The notes beneath the pieces are model-generated. The model was given only the letters and a program-made list of their open reading frames with translations. It was not told the DNA's origin and did not search any database. Shown here piece by piece: positions 7,970 through 56,424 of a stretch of 64,000 nt of DNA (positions within the stretch are counted from its first letter, which is position 1; each line of letters starts with the position of its first letter). The stretch comes from Deltaproteobacteria bacterium. GTDB lineage: Bacteria > Myxococcota_A > Polyangia > HGW-17 > SLPX01. The stretch lies in contig JAGGXR010000112.1 of NCBI GenBank assembly GCA_021162935.1, positions 997 to 64,996 of the forward strand, given 5' to 3'. Position numbers and translations under genes: made by a program.

Positions 7970-7993
7970 CCATACCAGGCTAATCAGAGGATC

Positions 7994-8929: not shown

Positions 8930-9026
8930 GCCACATCGACGAGGGCCTCGCCGCTTTGTCCATCAGGCACCGCAGGCACCCGCTGCGACACCCTGCCAGC
9001 CCCCCTTTGACCTCTCCGTAAGAATC

Positions 9027-12000
9027 CTACTTGAGGTGTCGCTTGGTAGCCCGCAGGCCGGCGCTGGCCGCGCGACTGTGGGGCCAGCGATGCAGGACAT
9101 CTTTGTAGGCCGCTGCCGCCGACTTATACAAGCCCAGTCGATAGTATGCATTTGCGAGTGTCAACCGCGCTCTCGTCCCGCCGCCGGCGTGCACGGCCCG
9201 ACTCGCCAACCGAGCCGCTGACTTGTACCGGCCCTGCTGAAACGCCATTTCCGCCTGGAGTGCCTTGGCGCGCCCGCCCATGCCCGGCATCGACGAGAGA
9301 CGACGAATGAGGCGACCAGATTCTCCGTACCGGCCAGCAAGCAGGGCGGAGCGCGCCGCCTTGAACAAAGCCCGAGCATCCACCTTGCGCGGGGCGGCCC
9401 TTACCGCGCTCCGATCCCGTCCAGCGGCGCCCGGTGAACGGGGTCCTTTGATCAACGTCACTCGGACAGGCCGCCGGGACATCGAAACCGACGCCTGCCC
9501 GCCGCGAGACGGTCTTTCGCGCACACTCCGTGCCGGTTTGCGGCCGCCGGCCCCCTGCTGGACCCCTGCATCCGGTGCCGATGCCAAGCCGGTCACCCTA
9601 TTGTGTGATCCATCCGATGAAGTGGCGTCGGACGGAACGTTCGTCATCCCCACGGTACCATCGAGAGGTACCCCAACACCAACCGAACGGCCCTGTGTCT
9701 CCGCACCATCGGTGGCCTTGCCCGACGCGACCTCCCGGCCAGTCTCTTCGGTGGATCGCGGATTCCCCTTGCCTCGCGTTAGCAAAAACACGAGACCCAC
9801 GCCTACCACGAGCAAGGTGACGACCCCCACCACAAGCACCCAACGGGGGACCCGACCGAACAGACCGCCGGGAGCCTCATCCCAAAAGAGCTCGCTGTCT
9901 TCAACTGCGCCTCTCGATTCGGGGCTCGAAGATACTCCAACCGGTGGTGGCATGAAGGTCGGCTGCACGCCGGCGGGAGGCTCATCGGCAATCACCGGAC
10001 TCGTAGCCGATTCGCTGGCCGACTCGGCTGACGACGCCAGCACGGATCGCCCCCCTGGCCCGACTTCGCTTCCGGCCCCTGCCCGTGGCACAGGACTGGG
10101 TTCCCCAGCCGGATGCCCGACCGATGCCAGGACGAATCCCGGAGGAGGCCGGAGCGGGACCTCGCCCGACCCCACGATGGGAGGCATCGGCGCCGGAGGC
10201 CCGACTGCCGCGCCTCCGTGGCCCGACGGAACGTCCGTCGCTCGTGGAGGATCCCCAGGATCACCCGCCTCGTCCCCCGTCGAAGCCACCACGGCCATTC
10301 CCTTGGCCGTGCCTTTTTGCTGCCGCCCAGGAACCGTTTCCTCCCCGGCAGGCAAGAGAATCGGTCGCAGAAACGGTCCTGGGCCGGCGATCATCTCGCG
10401 ACTCTCCGATACCGACGCAGACAGCCCGTCCGACTCCCCGCCGGGCTGGGACGCCGGCGCAAGGGAGTCCTGATCCGCGCCACTGGCCGCCGTCGCAGGC
10501 GATGCGGCGATCGATGCAATGGCGGGCTCCCTCGCCGGGGACGCCTTGGCCGAGACTGATTCCGTCCCGGCTGTCGCGGGATCTGCATCCTGCTTTCCGA
10601 CCACGTCCCCACGCCGCATCGGCTGGGCCGTTCCAGAACCGAACTGCTCGGCAGTCTGCCCAGTGCGTGCGCCGAATCGCACCTGCGGGGCGGTTTGTCC
10701 CGTTTGGCCTCCGCTTCGACCAGCAGCTTCGACCAGCGCACCAAATTCGGCTGCTGTCTGCGGTCGCTCCGCGGGATCGCGTGCCAAGGCCCGCATGATC
10801 ACGTGGCAGATCCCCGAAGGCAGATCCGGACGATGCTGGGTGATGTCTCTGGCCGGACGCTGAAGCTTACGGACCAAGATCTCCTGGGCGAAATCTCCCT
10901 CGTGTGGCGTCCTGGCCGTGAGCATCTCATAGAGAATCACGCCGAGCGAATAGACGTCCGACCGGACATCCGCATCAGCTCCCGCCGCCTGTTCGGGCGC
11001 CATGTATTCTGGCGTTCCCACGGCGGCTCCTGGATGGGTGAGGGCGTTGCCGATGTCTGTTCCGTCCAAACGTTTCGCAATGCCGAAATCCAGAATTTTG
11101 ATCTGTTGGCCGCCTTGACGATCCGGGATCACCATCACGTTGTCGGGTTTGAGGTCCCGGTGGACCACCCCGGCCTGGTGGGCCGCCTCGACGGCATTGG
11201 TCAACTGCAGGATCAAAGTGCCCGCCAAGTCCAGATCCAACGGGGCATCGCGATCGAGCAGGTCGGCGAGACTGTGCCCCTCGAGGAGTTCCATGACGTA
11301 GAAGCAACGACCGTCTTCAGTGGTGCCAAAATCCAGGATGTCCACCACGGCCGGATGTCCGATTCTGGTTGCCGATCGGGCCTCGCGGCGGAATCGTTCC
11401 ACCGCCTCGGACGTCTTCGCATAGGCCTCGTGGAGAATCTTGATGGCGACACGGCGACCGATGTCTTCGTGTTCCGCCTCGAACACCTGACCCATGCCTC
11501 CTTCACCCAGCATGCGGCCAAGACGGTACTTGCCCGCCACAAGCGGTCTGTCTGAGGCCGCGGCCTCGGGCATCAGGGCACCGGCTTCATCGACGCCCTG
11601 GCGTGCCCGCTCCACGAGTTCGCGGATCTGCCGCCGCTCCTGGTGAATCCGTTCCCCATACAGGCTGCGCATGAAAGCGGCGACCCGATCCGTATCGAGA
11701 TCGGGCCACAATTTAGCCTGTACCGCCGCCAGGGCAGCGCGCATCTCATCCGCAGAGCGATATCTCCGGGCGGGGTCCGCATCCAGGGCCTTGAGCACCA
11801 CGGAATCCAACTCCAGCGGCACGCGGGAACATACCGTCGAGGGCACGGATACCTTCGGTCCCCTGGCCCGATCCACCAGGTCCTGCGCCTGATTCTTCCC
11901 TGGGGGAAACAGCCGTCGGCCCGTAAGCAACTCCCAGAAAATGACACCGATGGCATACAAATCCGCTCGGGCGTCCATGTCACGACCACGGGCCTGTTCG

Positions 12001-12572
12001 GGCGCCATGTAGGAGACCTTCCCAAACACGACTCCGGGCGCGGTCTTCTGCATCTTGAGCGTGGACAGCGCCAGGCCGAAATCCGCAACCTTTCCCTCGC
12101 CCGAATAGGTGACCAGGATATTGGGTGGACTGATGTCTCGATGGACGAGTTTGAGCCCTTCGTAGCTATGTGCATAGGCAAGACCGCGAAGCGCATCCTT
12201 GATGACCTGGACGACCACATCGAGGGGAAAGGCCATCTGCACCTCGACACATCGATTCCAGATGGCGCGTAGATCCTTACCCTCGACAAATTCCATAGCC
12301 ATGTACATCTGGCCGTCCACATCCCCTACGTCGAAAACCTGAACCAGGTTTCCATGGGTCAGCCGGACCACCACCTTGGCCTCGTCCTCGAACCGGTGCA
12401 AAAACTCATCGTTCGACCGCTCGGGCAGCATGACCTTGATGGCAAGGAGTTTCTCCATGCCAGTCGCGCCCGTGGTCGCCACGTACACAGCCCCCATGCC
12501 CCCCGAGGCAAGCGGCCTCAGGATCGTGTAGTTGCCAAACCGGCGGGGAAACTTGTCTCGATGTCGTGTCAT
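9027..12572 (-). CDS. Membrane Ser/Thr protein kinase with two tandem kinase domains, low-complexity linker, TM helix and C-terminal TPR
   Basis: Domain 1: GGMGAVY, AIK, HRDISPPN, DFG, APE. Domain 2: GEGGMGQV, AIK, HRDLKPDN, DFG, APE. TM WVLVVGVVTLLVVGVGLVFLL. Start re-picked at ATG 12572. Confidence 0.92.
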   Translation of the reverse strand: MTRHRDKFPRRFGNYTILRPLASGGMGAVYVATTGATGMEKLLAIKVMLPERSNDEFLHRFEDEAKVVVRLTHGNLVQVFDVGDVDGQMYMAMEFVEGKDLRAIWNRCVEVQMAFPLDVVVQVIKDALRGLAYAHSYEGLKLVHRDISPPNILVTYSGEGKVADFGLALSTLKMQKTAPGVVFGKVSYMAPEQARGRDMDARADLYAIGVIFWELLTGRRLFPPGKNQAQDLVDRARGPKVSVPSTVCSRVPLELDSVVLKALDADPARRYRSADEMRAALAAVQAKLWPDLDTDRVAAFMRSLYGERIHQERRQIRELVERARQGVDEAGALMPEAAASDRPLVAGKYRLGRMLGEGGMGQVFEAEHEDIGRRVAIKILHEAYAKTSEAVERFRREARSATRIGHPAVVDILDFGTTEDGRCFYVMELLEGHSLADLLDRDAPLDLDLAGTLILQLTNAVEAAHQAGVVHRDLKPDNVMVIPDRQGGQQIKILDFGIAKRLDGTDIGNALTHPGAAVGTPEYMAPEQAAGADADVRSDVYSLGVILYEMLTARTPHEGDFAQEILVRKLQRPARDITQHRPDLPSGICHVIMRALARDPAERPQTAAEFGALVEAAGRSGGQTGQTAPQVRFGARTGQTAEQFGSGTAQPMRRGDVVGKQDADPATAGTESVSAKASPAREPAIASIAASPATAASGADQDSLAPASQPGGESDGLSASVSESREMIAGPGPFLRPILLPAGEETVPGRQQKGTAKGMAVVASTGDEAGDPGDPPRATDVPSGHGGAAVGPPAPMPPIVGSGEVPLRPPPGFVLASVGHPAGEPSPVPRAGAGSEVGPGGRSVLASSAESASESATSPVIADEPPAGVQPTFMPPPVGVSSSPESRGAVEDSELFWDEAPGGLFGRVPRWVLVVGVVTLLVVGVGLVFLLTRGKGNPRSTEETGREVASGKATDGAETQGRSVGVGVPLDGTVGMTNVPSDATSSDGSHNRVTGLASAPDAGVQQGAGGRKPARSVRERPSRGGQASVSMSRRPVRVTLIKGPRSPGAAGRDRSAVRAAPRKVDARALFKAARSALLAGRYGESGRLIRRLSSMPGMGGRAKALQAEMAFQQGRYKSAARLASRAVHAGGGTRARLTLANAYYRLGLYKSAAAAYKDVLHRWPHSRAASAGLRATKRHLK

Positions 12573-12768
12573 GTTTTCGGCAACGATACTATCTGAAAGA
12601 GGATGACCATTGCAAGAAGACACGCCGTCGCACCAAGGCGAACGGGCTGAAGAAATACGTTGGTCAACTGCCGAGTTGGAAGGCCGCGTACAGCACCAAC
12701 GTTTCCGATGGTATCGAAGCCCCCTTCTGTGGCGTCTGCCCGCCATGCCCCCAAGGCGAACACCTCGA

Positions 12769-13473
12769 TCAGGACTCTGCGCCCTGCTCCTTTTCGTCGT
12801 CCTGTTTTTTCTTGTACGAAAGCCGGCCGTCCAACCGATGAACAGGAAGCACCAACGATGAAGCGATGTTGGACACGTGCGCCTCGATCCGCTTCAAAAA
12901 CCGAAACAGCATCGCCGTACAAACCGCCTCGTTCGCGGACATGTCCGATCGTGCCACCTGCTCGATCAACGCGTCGCAACGCCGGGTCATGGCCGCCTCA
13001 TCCTGAACCACCTCCCGGGCGAGTTCCGAATCGGACTCGCGATAGGCATTGATGGCATCATCGACCACCTTGACCACGTGGTCGGCGACTTCTGCCACCT
13101 GCTCCTGATACCGCAGTTCACTGAGCGGTGTTTCCAGGTACTGGGCCACCTCCAGGAGGTTTTTGCTATAGTCCCCGACCCGTTCGGCATCCTTGACGAT
13201 GCTCATCAGGACAAGACAGGCGGGCATGTCTCCGCCAGGGTGGAGGGAAAGATACTCGACCACGTCCTTTCGGATCGCCCGTTCCTTGCGATTGATTGCA
13301 ATGTCCCGTCTGTAAACATCCGCCTGGGTGTCCACCCGTTGGACACGTCCCTTGAGCACGTCCAGAACGAGCAGAAACATCTCACGGTCCATTTTGAGCA
13401 TCTCGACGAAAGCGGTCATCATCTCCTGCACCGCCTGATGACTCTTCCACAGATCGAACAACATCCTGAACAT
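12769..13473 (-). CDS. phoU: Stand-alone PhoU-domain protein
   Basis: Two PhoU-type helical repeats: DIAINRKERAIR...DAERVGDYSKN and LKRIEAHVSNIA. Confidence 0.85.
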   Translation of the reverse strand: MFRMLFDLWKSHQAVQEMMTAFVEMLKMDREMFLLVLDVLKGRVQRVDTQADVYRRDIAINRKERAIRKDVVEYLSLHPGGDMPACLVLMSIVKDAERVGDYSKNLLEVAQYLETPLSELRYQEQVAEVADHVVKVVDDAINAYRESDSELAREVVQDEAAMTRRCDALIEQVARSDMSANEAVCTAMLFRFLKRIEAHVSNIASSLVLPVHRLDGRLSYKKKQDDEKEQGAES

Positions 13474-13486
13474 GGTTCTCTCCTGA

Positions 13487-14671
13487 TCAGTGCATCATGC
13501 GCCAGACGAAAATCGCCGTTCCCGGAAGAACGAAGAACAACCCCACCACATAGATCACCGCATAGATGGCGGACTTTGCGCCCAGACGCCCCATCGTTTC
13601 CGCCAGTCGAATCGGAATCCGCCTCATGAACCCAATCGGATAGAAGACCAGGATACCGGAAATGTTGAAAAGCAGGTGGACGAGCGCAATGGTCATGCCT
13701 GCCGCGTTGCCGGCCAAAGACGCGAGCAAGGCCGTCACCGTGGTGCCCACGTTGGCGCCGAGCGCCACCGGAAAAACCTGCTCAATGGTGAGCACGCCAG
13801 CGGCGGCCAGGGGCACCATAAGCGACGTGGTCACACTGGAACTCTGGATGATCGCGGTCACCGCAATCCCGACCAACAGCCCGACCGCAGGCACACTTTC
13901 CAACGCCTTGTTCAAATGCGATTGAGCCTTGTTGAGCACCAGTGTTTTCATCAACCGCGTGAGCATGTAGAGCGAGAAAATGAGCACGGCCACACTCGCG
14001 ATCAACAGGGTTACCCCGTCCCACGGCTTCCCCAGGAAAGCCAGCATGTGCCCACCTCCATGGGCCACGGGCTTGACGAATCGAGCAAGGGGGCCGTGAA
14101 AGCTCAAATCGGTCGAAGAACCGACGAGGAACTGGGTCACGTACGCCGCGGATTTGTGCAAAAACCCCGTCGCCAGCTCCAGGGGAAGCAACACGAGCAC
14201 CGAAAGGACATTGAAGATATCATGCACCGTCGCAGCGGCATAGGCCTTTTCGAATTCCTGCTTGCTGCCCACGTGAATGAACGCCACGAGCATCCCGGTG
14301 ACCGTCGTGCCGATGTTGGCCCCCATGACCACGGGCGTGGCGGTCTGCACGCTGAGCGTCCCAGACGCCACAAACGCCACGATCATGGAGGTCACGGTCG
14401 AGGAACTCTGGACGATGCTCGTTGCCAGAAGTCCAACGAACAGCCCCACGAACGGATTGGACGTTTCTTGGATGAGCGCCCGGGCGAATCCCTTGCCGAA
14501 CATCTTGAAAGAGACGCCCATGGCCGCAACGCTCACCAAAAACAAGTACAGGAGAACGATTGCGCCCAGAAATCGAAAGATGGTCTGCGAACGAGAAAGT
14601 TGAACGTCGATCCTGCCCTGCCCCGCCGTCTTCGCTGCCACATGGTCCGCCAGTTCACCGGTCCTGGTCAT
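13487..14671 (-). CDS. nptA: Na+/phosphate cotransporter (NptA / SLC34 family), short form without fused PhoU domains
   Basis: Two QSSS repeats (IVQSSSTVTS, IIQSSSVTTS), each followed by GANIGTT or GANVGTT. Confidence 0.92.
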   Translation of the reverse strand: MTRTGELADHVAAKTAGQGRIDVQLSRSQTIFRFLGAIVLLYLFLVSVAAMGVSFKMFGKGFARALIQETSNPFVGLFVGLLATSIVQSSSTVTSMIVAFVASGTLSVQTATPVVMGANIGTTVTGMLVAFIHVGSKQEFEKAYAAATVHDIFNVLSVLVLLPLELATGFLHKSAAYVTQFLVGSSTDLSFHGPLARFVKPVAHGGGHMLAFLGKPWDGVTLLIASVAVLIFSLYMLTRLMKTLVLNKAQSHLNKALESVPAVGLLVGIAVTAIIQSSSVTTSLMVPLAAAGVLTIEQVFPVALGANVGTTVTALLASLAGNAAGMTIALVHLLFNISGILVFYPIGFMRRIPIRLAETMGRLGAKSAIYAVIYVVGLFFVLPGTAIFVWRMMH

Positions 14672-14784
14672 CTCGCCACACTCCTGTTGCCTCAGGCCAT
14701 CGTTGCGCGCCACCAGGCTTTGCAAACGAGATATTCACCGATCCTGCAAAGAACCGGCGAACACAGTTTGACTTCGCGGCGAAC

Positions 14785-16350
14785 CTACCGGTTGTGCCTT
14801 TTTCTTGTCAAGCGATATTCGAGCATGATGAAAAACAGCGCCAGCAGGAGCCACCACAAGGACGGCCCGGTGCCAGTAGCCCGACAGTTGCAGCCCGACG
14901 GCTCATGTGCCGAACCCTGGGCTCCAGCGTCGCCCCGTGCCGCATCTTCTACGACGCCGGCATCGCCCGAACCGCTGTCTGCGACAGAACCATCGAGGCC
15001 GACGGCGGCGTCCACACCGCCGTCCGGGCCGCCATCGATGCCTGCATCGGGATCGTTGCTGCAGTGGACCTGGTCCTTTTCGAACACGACATGATCGAGA
15101 TCGCCCTCGATCTGAGGCGGGCTAGAAAGACTCTGGGTTCCCAGGTCACGCGCGGTCAGGGTGAGTTGGTCGCCCGCCACATCGCAAACAATGTAATGCA
15201 GATGATTTGCCGCCACGGCCGAGCCTTCCACTGTCTGAGAAAACAGCGGGTTGACGAGTGCCCCATAGCCACCGCTGACGATGTAGACGACACCCTGCGC
15301 CACACCTCTCGATCCACCGTCATCCGACAACGGCAAAATCTGCCTGGGTGTACCATACCCGCCCAGCGACGGATGAAACCGCTCATAATCATGATCGTGG
15401 CCACTGACCACGAGGTCCACGTGATGGGCGTCGAGCACCGGCACCATCACCTCGGCTCGTGGCGCATCTCCGTCGTTTCCCCCGTGTGCCCCACTGGACC
15501 AAATCGGCCGGTGAAACATGACCAGGGTCCAATCCACCTGATTCTCATGCGCAGTCAGCTCCTGATCCATCCAGCTGATCTGCTGGTCCATATCAAACGT
15601 TTCCGTGGACAGGACGATGACCTGCAAATTGCCAATGATGAGTGAGTAGTAGTCCTCCGTGGAATCGGGCCCGTCGGTGGGATAGCCGAACAAAGCGTTG
15701 AAGAAAGCGGTCTCTCCCTCGCCGGGCCCATTGTCATGGTTGCCAATGGTTAAAAAAAACGGCCGATCAGCAGAAATAGTCGTCAGATCGGAAAGTTCGG
15801 TGACCCATTGCTCCGCCTTCTCCCCGCTCCGCACGTAATCGCCCGAATGGAGCACGAACAACGGCTGTTCGGATGCGACCAGCGTCATCACGTCCGGCCA
15901 TTGTGATTCACGATAGGTGCCAACCCAGGGGATCTCCTCCCCTCGGCTGTCGCCTCCGGCAACGAAACGAAAGGGGGCGCAGGATCCTGGTGCTGGTGCC
16001 GTCTTGGCCTGATGCCATGAGGACCAAACGTTCGAGGACTGGACGCGGTACTCGTACTCGGTGTTCGCCGAAAGCCCAGTGAAGGTGACCTGGTAGGTCA
16101 CGCCGAGCTCAGAGGTTCCCGTGTCCTGCTGGGTCGCATCCATGGGCGTCGCCGTCCCACCATCATGCCGTATCTCGGCCCGACCGGGCCCGGAAGCATC
16201 ACTCCAAGAAACCGTCAAAGAAGAAGAAGGGTCCTGGCTCCAGGAAAGCCGCAACCACTGCGGTTCGGCCCTCGTCGTTCCCTCGGTGACAACCAGGGCC
16301 CCCAACAGCACCACCCCACATAACCACGCATGTCGTCTCGTACTCGTCAT
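14785..16350 (-). CDS. Purple acid phosphatase-family metallophosphoesterase with N-terminal FN3-like domain and MYXO-CTERM-like anchor
   Basis: Signal peptide; GDSRG, HSGDY, IGNHD, VMFHRP, SGHDHDYER; DAG/DGG-rich linker; C-terminal GCNCRATG...TM...RKRH. Confidence 0.9.
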   Translation of the reverse strand: MTSTRRHAWLCGVVLLGALVVTEGTTRAEPQWLRLSWSQDPSSSLTVSWSDASGPGRAEIRHDGGTATPMDATQQDTGTSELGVTYQVTFTGLSANTEYEYRVQSSNVWSSWHQAKTAPAPGSCAPFRFVAGGDSRGEEIPWVGTYRESQWPDVMTLVASEQPLFVLHSGDYVRSGEKAEQWVTELSDLTTISADRPFFLTIGNHDNGPGEGETAFFNALFGYPTDGPDSTEDYYSLIIGNLQVIVLSTETFDMDQQISWMDQELTAHENQVDWTLVMFHRPIWSSGAHGGNDGDAPRAEVMVPVLDAHHVDLVVSGHDHDYERFHPSLGGYGTPRQILPLSDDGGSRGVAQGVVYIVSGGYGALVNPLFSQTVEGSAVAANHLHYIVCDVAGDQLTLTARDLGTQSLSSPPQIEGDLDHVVFEKDQVHCSNDPDAGIDGGPDGGVDAAVGLDGSVADSGSGDAGVVEDAARGDAGAQGSAHEPSGCNCRATGTGPSLWWLLLALFFIMLEYRLTRKRHNR

Positions 16351-16467
16351 GATCCATAAACCTCCAGATGGCCTATGATACCACGATGAACGGCGGTCGC
16401 TGCTGTCTTTTTGGGGAGGGCGTCACCATTGCCGAAACCACAGGGGAGATGCCGGCCTATCTCGGAG

Positions 16468-17865
16468 TCAGGACGTCGCGTCGGCACCGATGTTCGCAGT
16501 AATCGCCGTGACAGTGGCCGCCAACGCGTCCAGGTCGACCTGCTGCTGCTCAAAGTTCGATAGGTCCTTGACCGTGGCCCGACCAGACGCTACCTCGTCG
16601 GGGCCGAGGATGACTGCGGCAGGAATCCCTCGTCGCGAGGCATACTTGAGCTGACGACCCATCTTGACCGGCTCACAATAAAAATCCACCTTCAACCCGG
16701 TGGCTCTGAGTTGCTCCGCAACACGAAGACTCGTCCCCACGCCATCCCGATCCCAACAGGTGACCAGCACATCGACCGCCGGAGTCCGTGTTTCGGTTCG
16801 CTGCTCGAAAATGTCCACGATGCGCTCGAGCCCCAAAGACAAGCCACAGGCCGGCTGCTGTTCGCCCATGAACATGCCTATCAAGCCGTCGTACCGCCCG
16901 CCGCCGGCAAGACTGACACCAAGTTGGGGCGATGAGATCTCGAAAATCGCTCCTGTATAGTAGCTCAGCCCACGAGCCAGACACGGTGCGACAGAGAGTC
17001 GCCTGCTGGTCTGTTCCCCGCTGAGGTCCAGAATCTGCTCGATCTCGGCCAGGCCGGATTCCGCCTGCTCGTTCCCACGACAATGTCCCGCCAACTCCGC
17101 CAGCACGACTTCATTGCCTTCATCGTCGAAACTGAGCATGCCCAACAGTGCATCGGCAGCCTCGACCCCCCGTTCGATGAGTTCGGCGCGCACCGCGTCC
17201 TTGCCGATCTTGTCCATTTTGTCGAGAACCACGACCGCATCCGTCCGGCGCGCTGCCGGCACCCCGGCCTGTTCCAGCAGGCCAAAAAGAAGCCCCCGGT
17301 GGTTCAACTGAACGGTAAAATCATCAAACCCCAGCCGCTCCAATGCTTGGCAGGCAGCGGACAACAGTTCCACCTCGGGAAGGGGGGCCGGCGCCCCTAC
17401 GATATCCACGTCACACTGATAGAATTCCCGATATCGCCCCCTAGCTGGACGATCCGCCCTCCAGACCGGCTGAATCTGGTATCGCTTGAAGGGTAGGGGC
17501 ATCCTGTGGGCCGCCACGACCCGGGCCAAAGGCACCGTGAGATCATAGCGAAGGCCCAAATCCGCTACGGCCGCAGGGTCCACGTGCGGCGCGGCAAGCG
17601 CTTTGGCGAGTTTGTCTCCCCGCTTGAGCACCTTGAACAGGAGTTGATCGCCTTCGTCGCCATACTTACCAAGCAGCACCGAGAGGGTCTCTAGGGCGGG
17701 CGTCTCGATGGGCTCGAATCCATGCGCTTCGTACACGGATCGAATCACGTCGATGATGCGGCGTCTGAGCCGAACCTGGTCCGGAAGAAAATCCCGCATC
17801 CCCCTCGGGGGATTGGTGGACTGCTTCCCCCCTTTACTCTGTGCTCCACCGCCACGTGCTCCCAT
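16468..17865 (-). CDS. hisS: Histidine--tRNA ligase
   Basis: PRGMRDF, LRYDLTVP, RPARGRYREFYQCDVD, ARGLSYYTG, GGGRYD, GLERI, and anticodon-binding domain. Confidence 0.97.
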   Translation of the reverse strand: MGARGGGAQSKGGKQSTNPPRGMRDFLPDQVRLRRRIIDVIRSVYEAHGFEPIETPALETLSVLLGKYGDEGDQLLFKVLKRGDKLAKALAAPHVDPAAVADLGLRYDLTVPLARVVAAHRMPLPFKRYQIQPVWRADRPARGRYREFYQCDVDIVGAPAPLPEVELLSAACQALERLGFDDFTVQLNHRGLLFGLLEQAGVPAARRTDAVVVLDKMDKIGKDAVRAELIERGVEAADALLGMLSFDDEGNEVVLAELAGHCRGNEQAESGLAEIEQILDLSGEQTSRRLSVAPCLARGLSYYTGAIFEISSPQLGVSLAGGGRYDGLIGMFMGEQQPACGLSLGLERIVDIFEQRTETRTPAVDVLVTCWDRDGVGTSLRVAEQLRATGLKVDFYCEPVKMGRQLKYASRRGIPAAVILGPDEVASGRATVKDLSNFEQQQVDLDALAATVTAITANIGADATS

Positions 17866-48010: not shown

Positions 48011-48817
48011 TCAGCCCTTCGATCCCTGACGCCGCAAGAGCACGTATACCGCGCCGGCCCCTCCGTCGTACGGTCGCGCCGAACAGAAGGCCAGAACGTA
48101 ACGGCCCAGGATTTTGTGTGTGAGCCAGCCGACGAGTTCACGCTTGAGAACCGGATCTTTGCCCTCTGAATGCTTCCCCCGGCCACTCACCACGAGCACG
48201 CAGCGCAACCCATCACCACGGGCTTTGAGCAGAAAACTCCGCACCTTGCCCTTGGCTTCATCACGGACCATGCCATGCAGATCCAAATGCGCCTGGACGG
48301 AATATTCCCCTCGCTTCAGGCGACGAAGCAATCTACGATCCAGCCCTTTCGCGATCCCTTCGACGAATTCTTCCGTGTCGGAAATGTCGAAGGCCACCTG
48401 TCCATCGACGAGATCCATCAATTCGGCAAAGGCCTCGGCGTCCTCGTTCGGCCTACGGCCCACAAGTGGCCCGGGAGCAAGGGGCACTCGCCCAGCCCCC
48501 CTCTCTCGATCAAACCGATCGACCCCTGCCATCTCCTGCCAAAACAGCGCGTCGTCTGTAGGCCGGACGTCACGAGGAGGATCCGACGGGCCGGTTTTCG
48601 ACAACGTCGGGCGCGCATCCGCCTCGAACGCGCCCGTTTTGCGCTCGCCATTCTGCCGCGATGGCTGAGAGGCCTCTTTGGACGCCCCCCCTGCGAGTTC
48701 CCCCTTGAGCCGCTGGAACGGATTATTGAAGGGCTCGCCGCCCCTTGTGTCACGACCGGCTGGGCTGGTTTGCGCTGGCGAGGTTGCCCGTCGTTTCGTG
48801 CTTTGCTTCCTCGACAT
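48011..48817 (-). CDS. Stand-alone Smr/MutS2 C-terminal domain protein
   Basis: LKRGEYSVQAHLDLHG, CVLVVSGRGKHS, LAFCSARPYDGGAGAVYVLLR. Confidence 0.93.
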   Translation of the reverse strand: MSRKQSTKRRATSPAQTSPAGRDTRGGEPFNNPFQRLKGELAGGASKEASQPSRQNGERKTGAFEADARPTLSKTGPSDPPRDVRPTDDALFWQEMAGVDRFDRERGAGRVPLAPGPLVGRRPNEDAEAFAELMDLVDGQVAFDISDTEEFVEGIAKGLDRRLLRRLKRGEYSVQAHLDLHGMVRDEAKGKVRSFLLKARGDGLRCVLVVSGRGKHSEGKDPVLKRELVGWLTHKILGRYVLAFCSARPYDGGAGAVYVLLRRQGSKG

Positions 48818-48846: not shown

Positions 48847-50394
48847 CTAGAATCGGGCCTGAGAAAAAACCATCGCGCCAAATCGCCAGGGCTTCTCGTA
48901 ATCCAAGGCGGCGGTGCCGTTATGGAGGGTGACCAGATTCGTAAAGTTGTGGTCATACTGCAAGATGACCACCGCCATGAGTGTCATCATGTTGGAAAGG
49001 TCCCACTTGATGGACCCTTTGAGCGCGGTGATGGGCTTCGCCTTCTTCCCGTCGGGCAACACGGAGAAGTCTCCTTCGTCCCGAATCACGAGCACTTTGC
49101 GGCCCAGCACCACCGGTTGTCCGCCCATGCTTCCTGTCAGAGTCGTCTCCATGGTGGCCGGGACGACCATGGAGCCCACCATTCCGCCAAAGGTCAAATG
49201 TCGACTGGCCACGTACCAATCCGCCCCCAGAGCCACAAAAACCTGCGGGGTCGCCTTGGTCTCGGGCGACAACGCCTGGTAGGGAACAAAGCTCGGCACG
49301 TTGAGCAAGATGAACGGAACAGAACGGAGAAACGTGGTCAAATGGGCCCGCAGATACTTCCATTTCATCTTGGCGGAAAACGCCCCGGCATAAGCACTCT
49401 GGACCTTGGTGGTGCCGAAGTGGTCTGGGTCTTCGAGCGTCTGTCCGACGAGGGTGCCTTCGAGAGACACCTGATAGGAAAAACCAGGGCCATAGGTTTC
49501 CTTCCGACCAATGGAGTCCAAAAACGCCGAATCCGTGCGATAGAGGCGCAAGTCCGTAGAAATTCCGATGGGCATGCCTTTGTGCTGTGACAGCCGCATG
49601 GACCCGCCGAACGTCTGGACGGTTTGTCCTTCGACGCCATTATTCGGGTTGTCGCCCATATCGAAAAAACCACCGGACAGCTCGATCTTGACCCTGCCGG
49701 GCAATTCCACGCCGACTCCGGCGAGGCCGCCATAGACGGTCTCTGCTTCACGGCCCAGGCTCGTCTCACCATTTCCCCCAGGGGGTGGGTTGGTCAGGAT
49801 TCGCGCAGTCTTCATGCCTGCAAAAGCGTAGCCACTGGCCCATTTGAAACCCAACTTCACGCCAGGGGTAAGGTTGCTCTTGGCCGCGGGGAAAATGGAG
49901 GCGCCCCCCCAGGTCAGGCTGTACAGATAGCCAACGCGGAATCGATCGGTGGAAATGGGAAACATGGTCACGTCGAACATCGGAGCGTGTTGCCTCATTC
50001 CCCTGGAAAAATCATAGGCCACCCGCAGGTACGTGCCATCATCGAGGAACCGAATGTTCGAGGCGTCGGAGAAGTCCGCCTTGACCACGATAGCCGTTTC
50101 GGTGGAAAGTCCGGTAATAAAGCCAGGAAGCTTTTTATAAAGAACGAGATGCAACAGATTCTCTCGCCCCGTGTACTGGCTGTCCAGGTTGTCGAAGAAC
50201 AGCTTGTACCCCGGCCGATCCCCAAACCCGACGAGCGGGCTGTCTACGGTGGTCTCTCCGGCCTTGGCCAGGAAATTGTCGTCACCAAACGTAAACGTCA
50301 ACCGGGTGTCCACAAAGTCACCAGCCCGGGCCGTCTGGCTCCATAGCAACAAACCTGCCATCACCGCGAGATTGATCCGCCGATACTTTGACAC
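48847..50394 (-). CDS. Hypothetical outer-membrane beta-barrel protein
   Basis: Signal peptide ending ARA; many amphipathic beta-strands; C-terminal ...FGAMVFSQARF ends in Phe as in a BAM signal. Confidence 0.7.
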   Translation of the reverse strand: MSKYRRINLAVMAGLLLWSQTARAGDFVDTRLTFTFGDDNFLAKAGETTVDSPLVGFGDRPGYKLFFDNLDSQYTGRENLLHLVLYKKLPGFITGLSTETAIVVKADFSDASNIRFLDDGTYLRVAYDFSRGMRQHAPMFDVTMFPISTDRFRVGYLYSLTWGGASIFPAAKSNLTPGVKLGFKWASGYAFAGMKTARILTNPPPGGNGETSLGREAETVYGGLAGVGVELPGRVKIELSGGFFDMGDNPNNGVEGQTVQTFGGSMRLSQHKGMPIGISTDLRLYRTDSAFLDSIGRKETYGPGFSYQVSLEGTLVGQTLEDPDHFGTTKVQSAYAGAFSAKMKWKYLRAHLTTFLRSVPFILLNVPSFVPYQALSPETKATPQVFVALGADWYVASRHLTFGGMVGSMVVPATMETTLTGSMGGQPVVLGRKVLVIRDEGDFSVLPDGKKAKPITALKGSIKWDLSNMMTLMAVVILQYDHNFTNLVTLHNGTAALDYEKPWRFGAMVFSQARF

Positions 50395-50433
50395 GTCTCA
50401 CCTCCTTGCTGCGTTCGGACGGCGCCGAACCCA

Positions 50434-51891
50434 CTACTGTCTAAAATCGTCCGCCGTGCGCGGCAACAGGATCCAAGGCGGGCCGCCAAAGGAAAGTTGC
50501 TTGAGCGTCCCGGCAATGTAGGAAATCGTCTCTCCCTCGTGCTCGTTCGGGTCGAACGGAACGACCCCCTGCGTCACGACGGCCAGTTCCTGGCCATCCA
50601 CGTCAACTGTATACTGGAAATACTGGGTGTACGTTTCATAGACCCAGCAGGCCGGATCGTCCTCACAGTCGAACTTGCATTGTTTTTCCTCGGGTACATC
50701 GTAATCGACCTGGCCGTTTCCGTTCGTGTCACAGCGGGCGGAATGCCCGACGGTGACATTCTGGACGGCAACAAGCGACGCCTCGAGCTTCTCCATGGCA
50801 AAGTCATCCCGGATCGTTGCTCCATCCAAAACCAGTGGTTCGGGCAGAAACTGCGCACAGGCGGGGGGGCAACCGGCTTGCCCGTCGATACAGGTCGGAT
50901 CCGACCAGGCCGGATTTTTCAACTCGGTGAATCCGTTGAAATCATCTTCCCCCCCTTGGAGAAGTGTAATGCAATCGCCGGTCCTCAAATTCTCGGGCGA
51001 ATTGAAGTTGAATGCATAGATTGAGCCAAAATCTCGCCATGTGTCCGTTGCCAGCAACGGCCCCCCGTTGTTGCACACGTCCGTCAGGTAGAACCCTTGA
51101 GTGGTCACCGCAGTCACCACGAGCAGGGCACGCGTGTGACCTTGGCCGTCCACACAATCGTTGAGGCTGGAAAAATCATTGGCATTGTCCCCTTCGATCA
51201 GGACCCGATACCCCGAAAGGGGTGACTCATCGATATGGTCCTTGTCCACCCGCTGGACGTCTGCCACGGTTGGGGTATCGAATACGAAATCCCTGGACAC
51301 GCCCACCGCGCCGGTTCCCGCCTCAGGATTGTCATCATCCGTGCTCAGGCAACCCGTTCCCAATTCCGCGTGCCCCGAGGACCAACAGGCAGGACAGTCC
51401 GCACCATGCGTGAGGCACTCGTTCGTTACTTGCTTCGGACGATATCCAAGGTCTTCGACCATAATCTGCATCACGTCGAAGCCCGCTTGAAACGTCACCG
51501 GGACGTCGGCCCCCTGCCCATTTTGGATGGTCACGATCTTGACGGCCTGCTCGCCAGCCACCTGGCCAGGAAGACCATATGTGTCTGGGGTTCCGTTCGG
51601 CCACATGCCTGATGGCACCAAAGCGAGGGCCACGGTATCGTTGTAGTCCGTGTCCATGGTGCCATCCGGGCGAAGCGCCGTGATCTTGAGGTGGACGGTC
51701 ACCGGATCCAGGGAAAAGGGACAGGGGTCATCCTCGGTGGCCTGACACCCGGAAGGCGGCGCAACCACCTCGACGTAGAACGAAGTCAACTCGCGTCTGT
51801 GATCATCGCGCTCCACGACACAGGATGCCGTCATAAAGGAAAGCAGCGAAAACCAAACCATCGCACTGTGTATTCTCATCAGGTTCCTCAC
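50434..51891 (-). CDS. Lipoprotein with a YhcR/ExeM-like OB-fold and Cys-rich segments
   Basis: Lipobox-like MTASC; VTAVTTQGFYLTD...IYAF...GDCITLLQG...DFNGFTEL and EKLEASLVAVQNVTV resemble OB-fold segments of extracellular nucleases; GTGA overlap with the upstream gene. Confidence 0.7.
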   Translation of the reverse strand: MRNLMRIHSAMVWFSLLSFMTASCVVERDDHRRELTSFYVEVVAPPSGCQATEDDPCPFSLDPVTVHLKITALRPDGTMDTDYNDTVALALVPSGMWPNGTPDTYGLPGQVAGEQAVKIVTIQNGQGADVPVTFQAGFDVMQIMVEDLGYRPKQVTNECLTHGADCPACWSSGHAELGTGCLSTDDDNPEAGTGAVGVSRDFVFDTPTVADVQRVDKDHIDESPLSGYRVLIEGDNANDFSSLNDCVDGQGHTRALLVVTAVTTQGFYLTDVCNNGGPLLATDTWRDFGSIYAFNFNSPENLRTGDCITLLQGGEDDFNGFTELKNPAWSDPTCIDGQAGCPPACAQFLPEPLVLDGATIRDDFAMEKLEASLVAVQNVTVGHSARCDTNGNGQVDYDVPEEKQCKFDCEDDPACWVYETYTQYFQYTVDVDGQELAVVTQGVVPFDPNEHEGETISYIAGTLKQLSFGGPPWILLPRTADDFRQ

Positions 51892-54317
51892 TTGGTGGGA
51901 AACACTCGCCCAAGCCGACCGTCTTCCTTGGCTACGATACAGGGAAGTTGCTGACAGAGCGCCTCGGCCCGCCCCGGGGCCTGGGCCTCGCAGGCGTCCT
52001 TTCTCGCATCCTTTTCGTATGCGCAGTCCGCCTTATACATGTTCGTGAGGCTGTCCACGCACAAACTGTAGTTGGTCGGATCCCATCCGCAGGCTGGGTA
52101 CTGGGTGAAAATGTAGTCGGTCACGGCATCACGAAGCGAAATGCCTGTATTGAACTGCGTTGTGTTGTGCTCCAAAGTGGTAAAGCCGGAGCCACCATTC
52201 GCAATGTAATCGTTCGCCGCCAGCTTGTAGGAAACGTATTTTTCCACGGGCGTCCCACAGCCCACCGGAGTGCAGAGTTCGCCCGATGGACAGCACGCGC
52301 CATCTCCTGGTGTGTAGTCGGCGGGACAGGGATTCACCGGAGCCAGCCGCCAATCGCAGCAAGGCGGATCGGGCTGGGCTGGTGGTGGGTCCGGACAGGC
52401 CCCGGAGACCTCTCCAGAACAACGAGCCAAATCCATGCAGACTTGAGTGCTCGCAGGGGTGCAGGCCTGAAGTCCATCGAACTGGCAAAGAGGCCCATCG
52501 ACTCCTTTGCCGTAGGTCGCGGGATCCGACAACCGGCTGCCACCGATCGTCACACGCTCAGCACGCTCCCCGTATGGGCTGTCCTGCGGATCCTTGCAGT
52601 TCAGCACGGCGGTGATGCCCGACACCTGGGCCTGGGCCTGACAACCACGCCGCGCCGACCGCAGAGCCACGTAGTCCATCAACTCCAAAACCTCCGACCC
52701 AGACAGGGTCATGGTCGTGAGCTTGTTCTCGAACGGAAACACATTGTACATCACATCCACGGTCACCGGCCCGGACTCGATATCGGCACGGATGCCCAGG
52801 GTGTTCGTCAAGCCGAACTGGGCCTCCACGCGGTTCCTCGTCTGCATGGCTGCCGCGACCACGTCGCCCAAAGCCGAATCCCCTTGGCCCATTGGGTAGC
52901 GACGAATCTTTCTTGGGGCGAATGCAATGATGCGGCCCAGATGCAACTTTCGCTTCAACTGATACGTATAGTGCTGGAGGAGGGCCTGAATCCGGCCGTC
53001 GAATTCCGACTCTGGAATCCGCTCGTCCACGGGATGAAGGATGTATTGATACGAAGACAGCTCAAAACCATTTGCCTTCCACTGATTCACGTCCCTGTCG
53101 TGTTGGCGACAGCGTCCATCCTCCGGGTTCGCGTTGCAATCCGTGCCGTCTGGATCGGCTGGGCGATCCGGCTTGTTGAAAACCGTGTCCAGCTCTCCGA
53201 CGAACTTGACGAAAGCCCCCGAATGGACCAACGGCACCCTTCGATGATGCGGCTTACAGTCTGGGTCGTACCGAGGATCGCCCTTGGGATAGCAGTAGCA
53301 ACCCAACTTGGCCAGGTGCGCAATGATGGCGGCACCGTGCTCACTCGACAGACAGGACGGGTCTGGACTGCAATCTTGAAGCGCCTCCGGAGGGTTCAAC
53401 ACGATGTGCAGGTGTCCACCGAACACCACGTCAATACCCGTGGTGTATTGAATGAGCTGCTCGTCTCCGATAAGTTTTTGGATAATGGAACAACTCGAAG
53501 CGTCGTTGCCACAATTTCCATTCGGACAGTCCATTTCCAGATCGGTCTCGTCCCCACGGCTCATCTTCTTTTCGCCGCGCAGCCCCAGGTGGGACACAAC
53601 CGCGATAACGTCCACCTGCGGCCGCAAGAAATCGATCCAAAACTGCGTCTGTTTCACTGTCTCGAGAGGCGTCGCCCCCAAAGAATTCCCTCCGTAGTAC
53701 AACGATACAATGGAGCTGAGACAGCCCAGGCCGATGACCCCGATTTTGACCCCATCTTTGTTCAAAATCACGTACGGCTTGGCGATCTTGCCAAGTTCAC
53801 TGGCCCCGGGCACGTTCGGATTCGTCGTGTCGTAGTTGGCGGCCAGAAGGGGAAACCTCGCATACTCCTGGGCCAGTTTGACCAGGTTGCGGATACCAAG
53901 ATCGAATTCGTGGTTCCCAATGGCCATGGCGTCCACGCCGATCATGGAAAGCACCTTGAGTTCCACCTCTCCATCAAATTCGTTGAAGATTGGCGCCCCT
54001 TGAAACACATCGCCGCTGTCCAAATGCACGATTCGGCCGCCCTTGGCCCGAATCCTTCGGATCACCGTGGCGGCCCTGGCTGCGCCACCCACGTTCGTGG
54101 GGCCATCACTCCTGGTCTTGAGGCCGAGGGACTGGTCCGTGATGCTCACATGGAGGCTGTAGGGCAACAGGCGCGAGTGCCAATCTGCCGTATGAATGAA
54201 GGTTATCTTGACGTCGTAGTTCTCGACAGGGTCCACCTTCGTCTGCTTCAAACACCCAGAAAGGGTCAACAAAACAACGAGCCACGTGCTCGTCGCGATG
54301 CGTGTTGCCGTCTTCAT
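51888..54317 (-). CDS. Bifunctional metallophosphatase / 5'-nucleotidase lipoprotein with Cys-rich insertions
   Basis: Lipoprotein signal ...LTLSGC; HTADWHS, DSGDVFQG, GNHEFD, SHLG, GGHLH; C-terminal domain GIRADI, FPFEN, ANDYIANGGSGF. Alternative start at 54356. Confidence 0.92.
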   Translation of the reverse strand: MKTATRIATSTWLVVLLTLSGCLKQTKVDPVENYDVKITFIHTADWHSRLLPYSLHVSITDQSLGLKTRSDGPTNVGGAARAATVIRRIRAKGGRIVHLDSGDVFQGAPIFNEFDGEVELKVLSMIGVDAMAIGNHEFDLGIRNLVKLAQEYARFPLLAANYDTTNPNVPGASELGKIAKPYVILNKDGVKIGVIGLGCLSSIVSLYYGGNSLGATPLETVKQTQFWIDFLRPQVDVIAVVSHLGLRGEKKMSRGDETDLEMDCPNGNCGNDASSCSIIQKLIGDEQLIQYTTGIDVVFGGHLHIVLNPPEALQDCSPDPSCLSSEHGAAIIAHLAKLGCYCYPKGDPRYDPDCKPHHRRVPLVHSGAFVKFVGELDTVFNKPDRPADPDGTDCNANPEDGRCRQHDRDVNQWKANGFELSSYQYILHPVDERIPESEFDGRIQALLQHYTYQLKRKLHLGRIIAFAPRKIRRYPMGQGDSALGDVVAAAMQTRNRVEAQFGLTNTLGIRADIESGPVTVDVMYNVFPFENKLTTMTLSGSEVLELMDYVALRSARRGCQAQAQVSGITAVLNCKDPQDSPYGERAERVTIGGSRLSDPATYGKGVDGPLCQFDGLQACTPASTQVCMDLARCSGEVSGACPDPPPAQPDPPCCDWRLAPVNPCPADYTPGDGACCPSGELCTPVGCGTPVEKYVSYKLAANDYIANGGSGFTTLEHNTTQFNTGISLRDAVTDYIFTQYPACGWDPTNYSLCVDSLTNMYKADCAYEKDARKDACEAQAPGRAEALCQQLPCIVAKEDGRLGRVFPTK

Positions 54318-54672
54318 AGTCACCAACCTCCAAAGGGTCACATTTTTCGATTTCATTTTTGTTTCACCATAGCACAGCGCATCGCAGAACCAACGAAAAA
54401 CAGACATGGTATCATCCGGATTTTTTCGGGACCTTCGCAGCTCATGGCCTTGCCCCCCACCGCCCATAGACGAAACGTTCCCCATTCGAACATCGTCGCG
54501 CTTGCCCCCAGGGCAATGAGCCGCCGGGAAGCACGAGGGGATACAGAATCAACCGTCACGTGCTGGCCTGAAACTTCCGCCACTGAACCACCCCGAAAAA
54601 CGCGTTCCTTGACCCAAGGCACGCAGACACGTACTCTCCTTGTTGCCAGACACGCACGACAAAGGTGATCTC

Positions 54673-56424
54673 GTGGCGAATATTCTTGTGTACATCGAAT
54701 TTTCCGGACAACTGGCGCTGCCCGCATCGCTCGAAGCGCTCGCTACGTGTCGACCTTTGGCGACCCGGCTGGGGGCCTCCCTTTATGCAATTCTTCCCTG
54801 CAACGAGCCGCCTCTCTACGGAGAGGACGACCTCATTGCCAAAGTATCTCGTCACGGCGCCGACAAGGTCGTGTTGCTCACCCACCCAACCCTTGAGCCG
54901 CCGGCCACCTTCGACCGCCAGTCCACGTCTCTGGTCAACGCCTGCCGGAGACTGTTGCCATCTCTGCTCTTCTTCGCCGACACCACGACCGGCCGAGACC
55001 TAGCTCAGGGCTGTGCGGCTGCTCTGGGCGCCATTCACCTCGTCCATCCGTCCTTCCATGTCCAAAACTCCAGGTGGATGGCACGTCAGCGTGCAACGGA
55101 TGGATCCTGCTCCACCCAAGTGGAAATCAAAGAGGTGGGCCGACCTCTCGTCGTCCTCCAAGGCCCTCCTGTCGAAACGAAAGATCGTCAGTCCAATGAC
55201 GAAGCAGAGGTGGTGGTCCTGTCGGCCAGCGCCGGGCCTTCGCGCATCAAACTCATTACGCCCCTTGAACAGGAACGCCTGCCCGGAGACCACAGACCCT
55301 TGATCCTGGCGGGCCAAAATGTCCCGCCGCAGAGCATCAACCGGCTCCGACGATCCAGCGCAGCCCTCGGTCTGCGCTTCGGCGTCACCTGGTCCTGCTA
55401 CGACCGGGGACAGGGCTCCATCGAAGAGGTCGTGGGCCCAGGAATCGACCTCCCATGGACGAATCGAATCCTGCTCGTTGGGGCCGAAGCGGATCCCCTC
55501 ACCATAGCAAGCCTCCCGGCAACGGCTGAACTCGCCATGGTTGCGGCACCCGACTCCAAAAATATGGGCCCATTCCGAAACCGCGTTCGCAGGCTGCTCT
55601 ACCAGGACCTGGCCAGCTTCTGCGATGTCTTCGGCCCGGCCGACACGTCCGACGCGGCACAGGATGTACCGCTCGACCGATCTGAAACCGCAACCGATGA
55701 CTCGAAACCAGCCGACGAGTCGGCACGAACCCTTGCTGCTGACACCATCAAGCCGCTCGTGATCATTCCTTCGCTCGCTGAGATGGAAAGTGTTCAGTCC
55801 GCCATCACGGCCGCCGCCTTTTTTGGGCAGCCAGCCGGGCTCTTCTGTGGCCCACGAGACCAGGCACAAGCAGTAGTCGAGGCGGGGTCGTTCGAACAGA
55901 TCACCTGTCTTTGGGACGACCTACTCGCCTGCGCAGATCTCCGTGCGGTGGTCCACGTCTTGGCCTCTGCCATGAAACGACTCACCCCTTCCTTGCTCTT
56001 GGTGCAGGATCGAAGCCAAACGTGGAGCAGCGGACTGCTCGGAGCCCTGCTGGCTCATCAACTTGGCTGGCCATGTTTCTCGGGTATCGTGGACATTCGC
56101 CCCTGGCAGCCAACGGCCGAGACGAGCCCCGCTCGCATCGAAGTCGCACGCATGTACCATACAGAACGCCTCTGGTGGCGGGTCGACCTGCCTGCCGTGA
56201 TCTCGGTGGCCCACATTCGACCAACACAGCGGCCAGATCCGAAGACCCCTCACATCGACGTTCTTTCATTCGAAGATCTCTCCGTGAGCCCCAACGACAT
56301 TTTACCCTTGTGCAAAACTCAGACCGAACGCATCTCTGAGACAAAAACCGAACCAACCACCAGCCCGACCCCCAAGGACCTCCTGGAATGGCTGGCGGCA
56401 CAAGGCTGGATCCGCCCCCGGTAA
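54673..56424 (+). CDS. Single-chain EtfA-EtfB fusion-like protein with degenerate cofactor motifs
   Basis: N-terminus like EtfA domain I (ILVYIE, HGADKVV, TTTGRDLA); middle like the EtfA FAD domain; C-terminus like EtfB (ADLRAVVHVLA, LLAHQLGWP, IEVAR...VDLPAVISV). GTG start with AAAGGT RBS. Confidence 0.65.
   Translation: MANILVYIEFSGQLALPASLEALATCRPLATRLGASLYAILPCNEPPLYGEDDLIAKVSRHGADKVVLLTHPTLEPPATFDRQSTSLVNACRRLLPSLLFFADTTTGRDLAQGCAAALGAIHLVHPSFHVQNSRWMARQRATDGSCSTQVEIKEVGRPLVVLQGPPVETKDRQSNDEAEVVVLSASAGPSRIKLITPLEQERLPGDHRPLILAGQNVPPQSINRLRRSSAALGLRFGVTWSCYDRGQGSIEEVVGPGIDLPWTNRILLVGAEADPLTIASLPATAELAMVAAPDSKNMGPFRNRVRRLLYQDLASFCDVFGPADTSDAAQDVPLDRSETATDDSKPADESARTLAADTIKPLVIIPSLAEMESVQSAITAAAFFGQPAGLFCGPRDQAQAVVEAGSFEQITCLWDDLLACADLRAVVHVLASAMKRLTPSLLLVQDRSQTWSSGLLGALLAHQLGWPCFSGIVDIRPWQPTAETSPARIEVARMYHTERLWWRVDLPAVISVAHIRPTQRPDPKTPHIDVLSFEDLSVSPNDILPLCKTQTERISETKTEPTTSPTPKDLLEWLAAQGWIRPR

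Follow-up and report, generated by a model that had tools for sequence, protein, structure and literature searches.

A stretch of 64,000 nucleotides (nt) from a Deltaproteobacteria bacterium (contig JAGGXR010000112.1, positions 997 to 64,996, forward strand), called the window in the following, carries on its minus strand three adjacent genes coding for a 5'-nucleotidase-family lipoprotein (NT), a lipoprotein with a predicted OB-fold unit (LP) and a predicted outer-membrane beta-barrel protein (BB). The initial annotation had described three co-directional open reading frames (ORFs) at this site, and these are present; public gene calls for a matching metagenomic contig list the identical three products of 809, 481 and 515 amino acids. 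On sequence grounds all three are judged to be real genes and not chance ORFs, given the Pfam matches of NT and, for LP and BB, homologues in the hundreds and a conserved synteny. The genes and their predicted features, in window coordinates, are:

51888..54317, minus strand: NT, 5'-nucleotidase-family lipoprotein, 809 amino acids
54252..54317, minus strand: NT signal peptide and lipobox, MKTATRIATSTWLVVLLTLSG followed by the lipobox cysteine (LSGC, Cys22), with Leu and not Lys at position +2
53403..54203, minus strand: NT metallophosphoesterase domain, residues 39-305 (Pfam stretch), with the motifs DxH, GD, GNHE, H and GGHxH
52098..52910, minus strand: NT C-terminal substrate-binding domain, residues ~470-740, split by a Cys/Pro-rich insertion
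50434..51879, minus strand: LP, OB lipoprotein, 481 amino acids (485 with an alternative GTG start at 51891)
51820..51879, minus strand: LP signal peptide and lipobox, MRIHSAMVWFSLLSFMTAS followed by the lipobox cysteine (ending SFMTAS before Cys20)
51454..51783, minus strand: LP N-terminal all-beta Ig-like domain, residues 33-142 (AlphaFold2 model, pLDDT ~80-94)
51271..51453, minus strand: LP Cys-rich acidic linker, residues 143-203, of low model confidence (pLDDT <50 at residues 164-185)
50443..51270, minus strand: LP two-domain OB unit of the ExeM/NucH/YhcR type, residues 204-479, with Cys-rich and EF-hand-like (CDTNGNGQVDYD) insertions
48847..50394, minus strand: BB, outer-membrane beta-barrel protein, 515 amino acids, barrel at residues 25-515

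The NT reading frame is open up to 54485, and the start at 54317, which has GGAGG upstream, agrees with the database gene call. Its stop codon TGA (51890-51888) overlaps a GTG (51891-51889) as GTGA, which had been taken for the NT/LP junction. Although this overlap exists, the database call (481 amino acids) starts from an in-frame ATG at 51879, which has GAGGA-N5 ahead of it, and the junction is therefore likelier to be a spacer of 8 nt than an overlap of -4; NT and LP are tightly coupled with either start. The LP stop (50434) and the GTG start of BB (50394) are separated by 39 nt, in line with the roughly 40 bp annotated, and AAGGAGG lies 6 nt ahead of this GTG. A promoter and terminator scan, at background level, returned no terminator-like site between NT, LP and BB.

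Features of the three proteins

Pfam analysis of NT led to matches with Metallophos (PF00149; E 7.7e-11) and 5_nucleotid_C (PF02872; E 9.1e-27), the latter consisting of the stretch 470-602 and a second stretch, and the best NCBIfam match was UshA (1e-41), with a score of 143 bits against an equivalog cut-off of 600 bits. The best matches among PDB sequences were the 5'-nucleotidases 3ivd and 2z1a (509 and 552 residues) at about 1e-34, with the 3ivd alignment spanning residues 464-597 and 683-736; NT is about 260-300 residues longer than these proteins, the extra length being due to large Cys- and Pro-rich insertions. Five metallophosphoesterase motifs (HTADWHS, SGDVFQG, GNHEFD, SHLG and GGHLH) are conserved in 17 orthologues from related loci, and the same set also keeps the C-domain motifs GIR, PFEN (PFxN) and Y..GGSGF, which we take to match substrate-binding residues of UshA (GIR, PFxN and aromatic-GGSGF). 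The lipobox cysteine, as judged by eye, is kept in five orthologues with a complete called N-terminus. These matches and motifs place NT, as a lipid-anchored protein, in the UshA/5'-nucleotidase family; its dimetal site is intact, and the motifs for base stacking and phosphate binding are conserved. This agrees with its first description as a 5'-nucleotidase lipoprotein.

LP gave no match in Pfam and NCBIfam scans, neither as a whole nor in three segments. Its relatives amount to 19 in a word-indexed search and to 455 representatives (50 % clustering) in an exhaustive profile search, and in nearly all of 32 LP-family N-termini inspected by eye a lipobox cysteine follows a hydrophobic segment. 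When 62 members of this family were scanned, 22 matched the OB part (positions ~34-70) of NF033681 ExeM_NucH_DNase, with a best E-value of 1.2e-7, and in 27 of the 62 the equivalent of the linker matched the NCBIfam 'acidic double-disulfide repeat'. For a direct comparison, seven canonical ExeM-type units were taken from proteins encoded beside the trio in the related loci L008, L027 and L028, each of which matches NF033681 at 1e-11 to 1e-26. Alignment of a profile of the LP C-terminal part (142 sequences) with these seven units by hhalign led to a match at 99.25 % with E 4.9e-20 over 194 columns, running end to end across LP 204-479, and a hidden Markov model built from the seven units matched the LP of the window at E 5.7e-5. 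An hhalign comparison of the 19-sequence LP alignment with one ExeM-type sequence (E 0.009) is suggestive only, and the result becomes decisive with profiles on both sides. A word-indexed homologue search with the ExeM-type OB unit returned one fragment, and tblastn of this unit against plasmids gave no match.

Residues 204-479 of LP are, from these profile comparisons, assigned as a homologue of the two-domain OB unit of ExeM, NucH and YhcR. No enzymatic domain was detected by Pfam in the 62 family members, no Pfam or NCBIfam match to the EEP (Exo_endo_phos) domain was obtained for LP or these relatives, the LP chain ending with the OB unit, and no Pfam match to the lamin-tail domain (PF00932) was found in LP. 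Since both the EEP and the lamin-tail domain are missing, LP stands outside the ExeM/NucH family (NF033681) and has only the binding module in common with it. The OB fold without a catalytic domain that had been suspected in this protein thus holds up, by the profile alignment, the model match and the missing enzymatic-domain matches. In ExeM, the YhcR-like double-OB region is needed for nuclease activity (PMC6085458).

The AlphaFold2 model of LP (pLDDT 79.7) shows an Ig-like beta-sandwich (residues 33-142), then a linker of poor order and finally two beta domains at ~190-330 and 350-481. Foldseek led to weak matches of the Ig-like domain with macroglobulin and FnIII-type beta-sandwich domains and to a partial alignment of the C-terminal domain pair with the tandem OB domains of HIN-200 (probability ~0.9), a weak structural agreement. 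Inside the second domain of the OB unit lies the EF-hand/dockerin-like calcium-binding loop CDTNGNGQVDYD (window 50689-50745, minus strand; residues 379-397), which is conserved in the close LP family, whereas distant members carry TSP3-like DDDGDGxxD motifs in the linker instead. The LP profile found a single match among PDB sequences, to calerythrin, which is EF-hand-like, runs via the CDTNGNGQVDYD loop and is at chance level.

BB starts with a signal peptide (residues 1-24, window 50323-50394) cleaved between ARA and GDF and ends in QARF, and the terminal phenylalanine of the BAM type, which had been pointed out before, is nearly invariant as F515 in 44 homologues, in which the N-terminal segment is also very strongly conserved. 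In the AlphaFold2 model (pLDDT 78.9) about 20 long antiparallel strands take up nearly all of the chain, without a helical N-terminal domain; we estimate from this model that the barrel would have ~18-22 strands. Foldseek against the PDB gave 142 matches at E<=1e-3, and all 50 matches listed are outer-membrane proteins, headed by AlgE (1.8e-7), Campylobacter MOMP, maltoporin and OmpF-type porins down to about 1e-5, with template-modelling (TM) scores of 0.4-0.55 and 7-11 % identity. TonB-dependent receptors align with TM 0.2-0.3 only, and LptD aligns poorly. Neither BB nor 43 relatives match any Pfam family, including Plug, TonB_dep_Rec and AlgE/Alginate_exp, so that the likeness to AlgE is one of fold only, and NCBIfam gave no family for BB; a sequence or domain match to Slam/DUF560 or a known translocon was likewise not found by these scans (Pfam and NCBIfam for BB, Pfam for the relatives). 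AlgE and the 16-18-stranded porins (maltoporin, MOMP, OmpF) are its best structural matches, with E 1.8e-7 to 1e-5, but share no Pfam family with BB, which is larger (~490 mature residues) and starts with a highly conserved segment not seen in them; BB differs from Slam, a DUF560 14-strand barrel with periplasmic TPR, by the missing DUF560 match and the missing helical N-terminal domain. The homologues of BB, 257 at E<=0.001 (at least 257 clusters at 90 % identity), are all nameless or 'hypothetical', and every one that carries an organism name belongs to a metagenome-assembled genome of Myxococcota, Polyangia or 'Deltaproteobacteria'. The model and the Foldseek matches support the annotation of the 48847-50394 product as a beta-barrel, and BB is predicted to be an outer-membrane beta-barrel of an unclassified family.

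Many BB homologues (570-650 amino acids; L007 8001-9833, L027 10595-12430, L031 10001-11911) have an additional N-terminal extension of ~100 residues behind the signal peptide, which is absent from the BB of the window. In L007 it is of low complexity and rich in Lys, Glu and Pro, and in L027 the match to the BB profile begins at residue 131. This extension may be a periplasmic spacer.

Conservation and gene neighbourhood

Apart from the window, 28 distinct loci were reached via LP homologues, BB homologues and a genome scan. In 28/28 of them LP and BB adjoin, even with an LP as distant as 25-29 % identity. The gene directly ahead of LP is NT in 21 loci; four lack NT, and in three it is out of reach, as the contig stops shortly before LP. 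As LP and BB adjoin in every locus and NT is missing from four, the conserved core of the module is LP plus BB, and NT is a very frequent third member. The set without NT (L004/L005, L011, L021, L025) has BB ~58-60 % and LP ~37-40 % identical to those of the window. In L004 a divergent pyruvate kinase gene is next upstream of LP; in L003 and L006 this gene sits just past NT, and its position suggests that NT was lost or relocated in the loci without it. The initial annotation had staked its proposal on an OB fold, a barrel and synteny of the three genes in related genomes; all three were examined and all three were found, with the qualification that conservation as a strict trio did not stand in the four loci mentioned and is complete for the LP-BB pair.

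All loci with organism names belong to the Myxococcota (Kofleriaceae, Haliangium, Polyangia, Labilithrix), and on large Polyangia contigs the trio is located between a phosphotransferase system (PTS) operon and rpsO-pnp. The NT-LP-BB module was also detected on two contigs of lower GC content, L028 with 47 % and L029 with 33.5 %, from which it may extend beyond typical myxobacteria.

In three distant loci the gene for a further lipoprotein, consisting of two OB units of the canonical ExeM type, is inserted between LP and BB (L026 6726-8159, L027 9172-10542, L028 2926-4269), so that a single barrel can be joined by more than one OB lipoprotein. In L008 a protein with OB, TSP3 and lamin-tail (LTD) domains is encoded directly upstream of NT. 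The most extended neighbourhood is that of L027, with a NucT-like PLD lipoprotein, NT, LP, the double-OB lipoprotein, BB, an amidohydrolase-OB protein and an EEP-family protein in this order and in one direction (3435-17074). The first of these is a lipoprotein with two PLD domains matching the nuclease NucT (3.7e-27) and a CehA/McbA-type metallohydrolase domain; the amidohydrolase is of the TRZ/ATZ type (guanine/adenosine-deaminase-like) and carries TSP3 repeats and an OB unit in the same chain; the EEP-family protein is again a lipoprotein, and a further OB-containing ORF is cut by the end of the locus. Judged by these domain matches the series is coherent for the breakdown of extracellular nucleic acid and supports a role in nucleic-acid catabolism. 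A search of the rest of the window for paralogues of the trio and for homologues of the nucleases and the deaminase of L027 gave none.

With regard to the location of the two lipoproteins, the retention signal for the inner membrane in M. xanthus is a Lys at position +2, and 5'-nucleotidase lipoproteins were found in its outer-membrane proteome (PMC3222651). Neither NT nor LP has Lys at +2, and on both grounds they probably go to the outer membrane.

Candidate functions of the trio

Extracellular DNA and RNA are major pools of phosphorus, nitrogen and carbon in soils, sediments and prey lysates, and we know of no account of the route by which predatory and saprophytic Myxococcota bring them in through the outer membrane. 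The explanation that we favour, with a probability of about 0.5, is that the trio works as a module at the outer membrane that scavenges nucleic acid or nucleotides from outside the cell, and that it is a divided diderm version of the ExeM/YhcR-type systems. NT, LP and BB would be transcribed in this order as a single unit. LP would bind DNA, RNA or oligonucleotides and pair obligately with BB, serving the barrel as lid or receptor, and NT would strip the 5'-phosphate from mononucleotides supplied by nucleases encoded elsewhere in the genome. BB would then be a passive outer-membrane channel for the substrate or its products, that is nucleosides, phosphate and possibly oligonucleotides, and an exposure of NT and LP on the cell surface is favoured over the other orientation.

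A split scavenging system of this kind had already been put forward in the initial annotation. Its structural claims and the context in L027 (nucleases, a deaminase-like enzyme and OB lipoproteins) speak for it, but no nuclease was found in the window, by the search for homologues of the L027 nucleases and among the Pfam gene calls within ~10 kb on either side. Several other findings weigh against it as well. LP and BB occur without an adjacent NT in four loci whose sequence ahead of LP extends for 2.6 kb or more. NT is far below every NCBIfam equivalog cut-off, so that its subfamily function cannot be assigned from sequence, and the UshA/5'-nucleotidase family also includes UDP-sugar hydrolases, cyclic-nucleotide phosphodiesterases and SoxB. 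The OB unit of LP is divergent and broken by the Cys-rich and calcium-loop insertions, a whole-chain Foldseek search with LP gave no match at E<0.001, and OB folds can bind ligands besides nucleic acids. Finally, the nuclease context of L027 is that of one locus, and no nuclease, Pho-regulon gene or nucleoside transporter was found next to the trio (window; Pfam gene calls ~10 kb either side).

A broader version, which we put forward tentatively and hold to be possible rather than probable, starts from the LP-BB pair. LP and BB would form a TonB-independent outer-membrane complex of a kind not described before, in which a barrel of a new family is capped or fed by an ExeM-type OB lipoprotein without catalytic activity, dedicated to capture and transit of nucleic acid or oligonucleotides in Myxococcota and some low-GC relatives. 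Nucleotidase, nucleases and deaminase would plug into it as modules, giving a 'nucleic-acid utilisation locus' with a logic like that of the polysaccharide utilisation loci.

The strict pairing of LP and BB even without NT would also be expected if BB, instead of conducting nutrients, were dedicated to flipping or threading LP, and perhaps NT, to the cell surface and to keeping it in place, in the manner of Slam/type XI secretion or of barrel-threaded lipoproteins such as RcsF-OmpA or CglB-Glt. The Ig-like domain of LP, which is missing from the neighbouring plain double-OB lipoproteins, could then be a docking element, the very strong conservation of the N-terminal segment of BB would fit, and the disulfide-rich and calcium-binding features of LP and NT suit an extracellular site. 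Such a role is nevertheless rather unlikely, as BB shows no sequence or domain likeness to Slam/DUF560 or a known translocon, the nearest folds are the substrate channels AlgE, maltoporin and porins, and there is still one BB in loci with two OB lipoproteins and several lipoprotein enzymes.

Somewhat less likely again is an arrangement in which LP and NT face the periplasm from the inner leaflet of the outer membrane. BB would then admit oligonucleotides or nucleotides, LP would bind the incoming strand as a ComEA-like ratchet or for retention, and NT would work in the periplasm, like the UshA of enterobacteria and Vibrio. The inner leaflet is the default for Lol-sorted lipoproteins without a dedicated exporter, UshA-type enzymes are classically periplasmic, and an AlgE-like barrel would suit the passage of a polyanionic chain; the ExeM-type OB unit argues for the other side of the membrane, since such units are characteristic of extracellular or surface nucleases.

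The match of BB with the alginate exporter AlgE as best fold could also point to a ligand other than nucleic acid, such as a sugar-phosphate or another anionic polymer, with NT as a hydrolase of UDP-sugars or other phosphoesters, LP binding an oligosaccharide and BB as an AlgE-like export or import pore. UshA is also a UDP-sugar hydrolase, NT remains under all equivalog cut-offs and OB folds include oligosaccharide binders. This is improbable: in the annotated loci no glycosyltransferase, Wza/Wzc/AlgK-type or other polysaccharide gene is conserved beside the trio, the LP unit is specifically of the ExeM/NucH type, L027 offers nucleases and a deaminase-like enzyme as context, and the similarity to AlgE is at fold level only (TM 0.4-0.5, ~8-11 % identity), with porins scoring almost equally.

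Least probable of all is a non-nutritional function in adhesion, with LP tethering the cell via BB to extracellular DNA of biofilms or prey debris and NT modulating extracellular nucleotide pools. In its favour, ExeM-family proteins affect biofilms (PMC6085458), LP has no catalytic domain, and many myxobacterial adhesins have calcium-binding and TSP3-type repeats, through which two neighbours of the trio, the OB+LTD protein in L008 and the deaminase-like protein in L027, also match the cohesion protein MtsC. Against it, the co-operonic hydrolases of L027 (nuclease, nucleotidase, deaminase-like enzyme and EEP protein) form a degradative series and not an adhesive one, and the trio lies in a housekeeping neighbourhood (PTS operon, rpsO-pnp) on the large Polyangia contigs.

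Related systems and flanking genes

YhcR of Bacillus subtilis is a wall-anchored single chain with OB folds, a nuclease and a 5'-nucleotidase domain. It shares with the trio a YhcR/ExeM-type OB unit (as in LP), an enzyme with Metallophos and 5_nucleotid_C domains (as in NT) and anchoring to the envelope, whereas the trio is divided into separate diderm lipoproteins, has no nuclease domain in the window and has the barrel added as obligate partner of the OB protein. The ExeM/NucH proteins (Shewanella ExeM, Vibrio Xds; NF033681) have an N-terminal double-OB region homologous to LP 204-479; unlike these, LP is devoid of the EEP and lamin-tail domains and has an Ig-like domain, a lipid anchor and the Cys-rich and calcium-loop insertions. 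YhcR is cited in the ExeM paper (PMC6085458).

The use of phosphate from extracellular DNA and nucleotides via UshA, CpdB and PhoX in Vibrio and Shewanella follows the same pathway logic as proposed for the trio. There, nuclease products are dephosphorylated outside the cytoplasm by an UshA-family enzyme before nucleoside and phosphate are taken up. In contrast to the trio, the Vibrio and Shewanella enzymes are soluble and periplasmic and rely on general porins or Tsx/OmpK-type channels, and their genes do not stand together with genes for a binding lipoprotein and a barrel. The SusC/SusD loci of Bacteroidota resemble the trio as operons of a binding lipoprotein, a lipoprotein hydrolase and an outer-membrane barrel. 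No homology exists, however; BB has no TonB-dependent plug or receptor domain and LP is OB-based, compared with the TPR fold of SusD.

No description of the trio layout, of the M. xanthus locus tags or of the LP and BB families was found in the open-access literature. The chemistry and the binding module are known; new are the split architecture, the two unclassified families and the obligate barrel partner. As LP and BB, both from families without a Pfam or NCBIfam model, are tied to a recognisable enzyme and a well-studied nuclease binding module, their function can be tested directly. If LP and BB indeed formed a physical complex, this would be a new architecture among the lipoprotein-barrel machines (SusCD, LptDE, Slam, MtrAB) and could be a route of nucleic-acid uptake in bacteria without classical porins.

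In the window the trio is flanked by a divergent ETF-domain gene and an Smr gene. The former (54640-56424, plus strand; ~590 amino acids) shares an intergenic region of 322 nt with NT, an arrangement kept in L001. Alignment of the upstream regions of the window, L001 and L010 led to a short conserved stretch, CGTTTC..TC.GTGGAC, with TATGAT ~15 nt downstream of it in L001 and L010 and absent in the window; as this three-way alignment showed no convincing conserved regulatory motif, upstream CTGT repeats are not claimed as a Pho box. An ORF of 906 amino acids antisense to NT (51948-54668, plus strand) is backed neither by homologues nor by its composition and was rejected as an artefact typical of high-GC DNA. 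On the other side, an SmrA-like endonuclease with an Smr domain (48011-48817, minus strand; NCBIfam 6e-28) starts 29 nt 3' of BB on the same strand. It has no signal peptide and follows the trio in L001 and L030, its closest relatives, but not in distant loci; for these reasons it was not counted as part of the system, and it is probably co-transcribed by accident of position.

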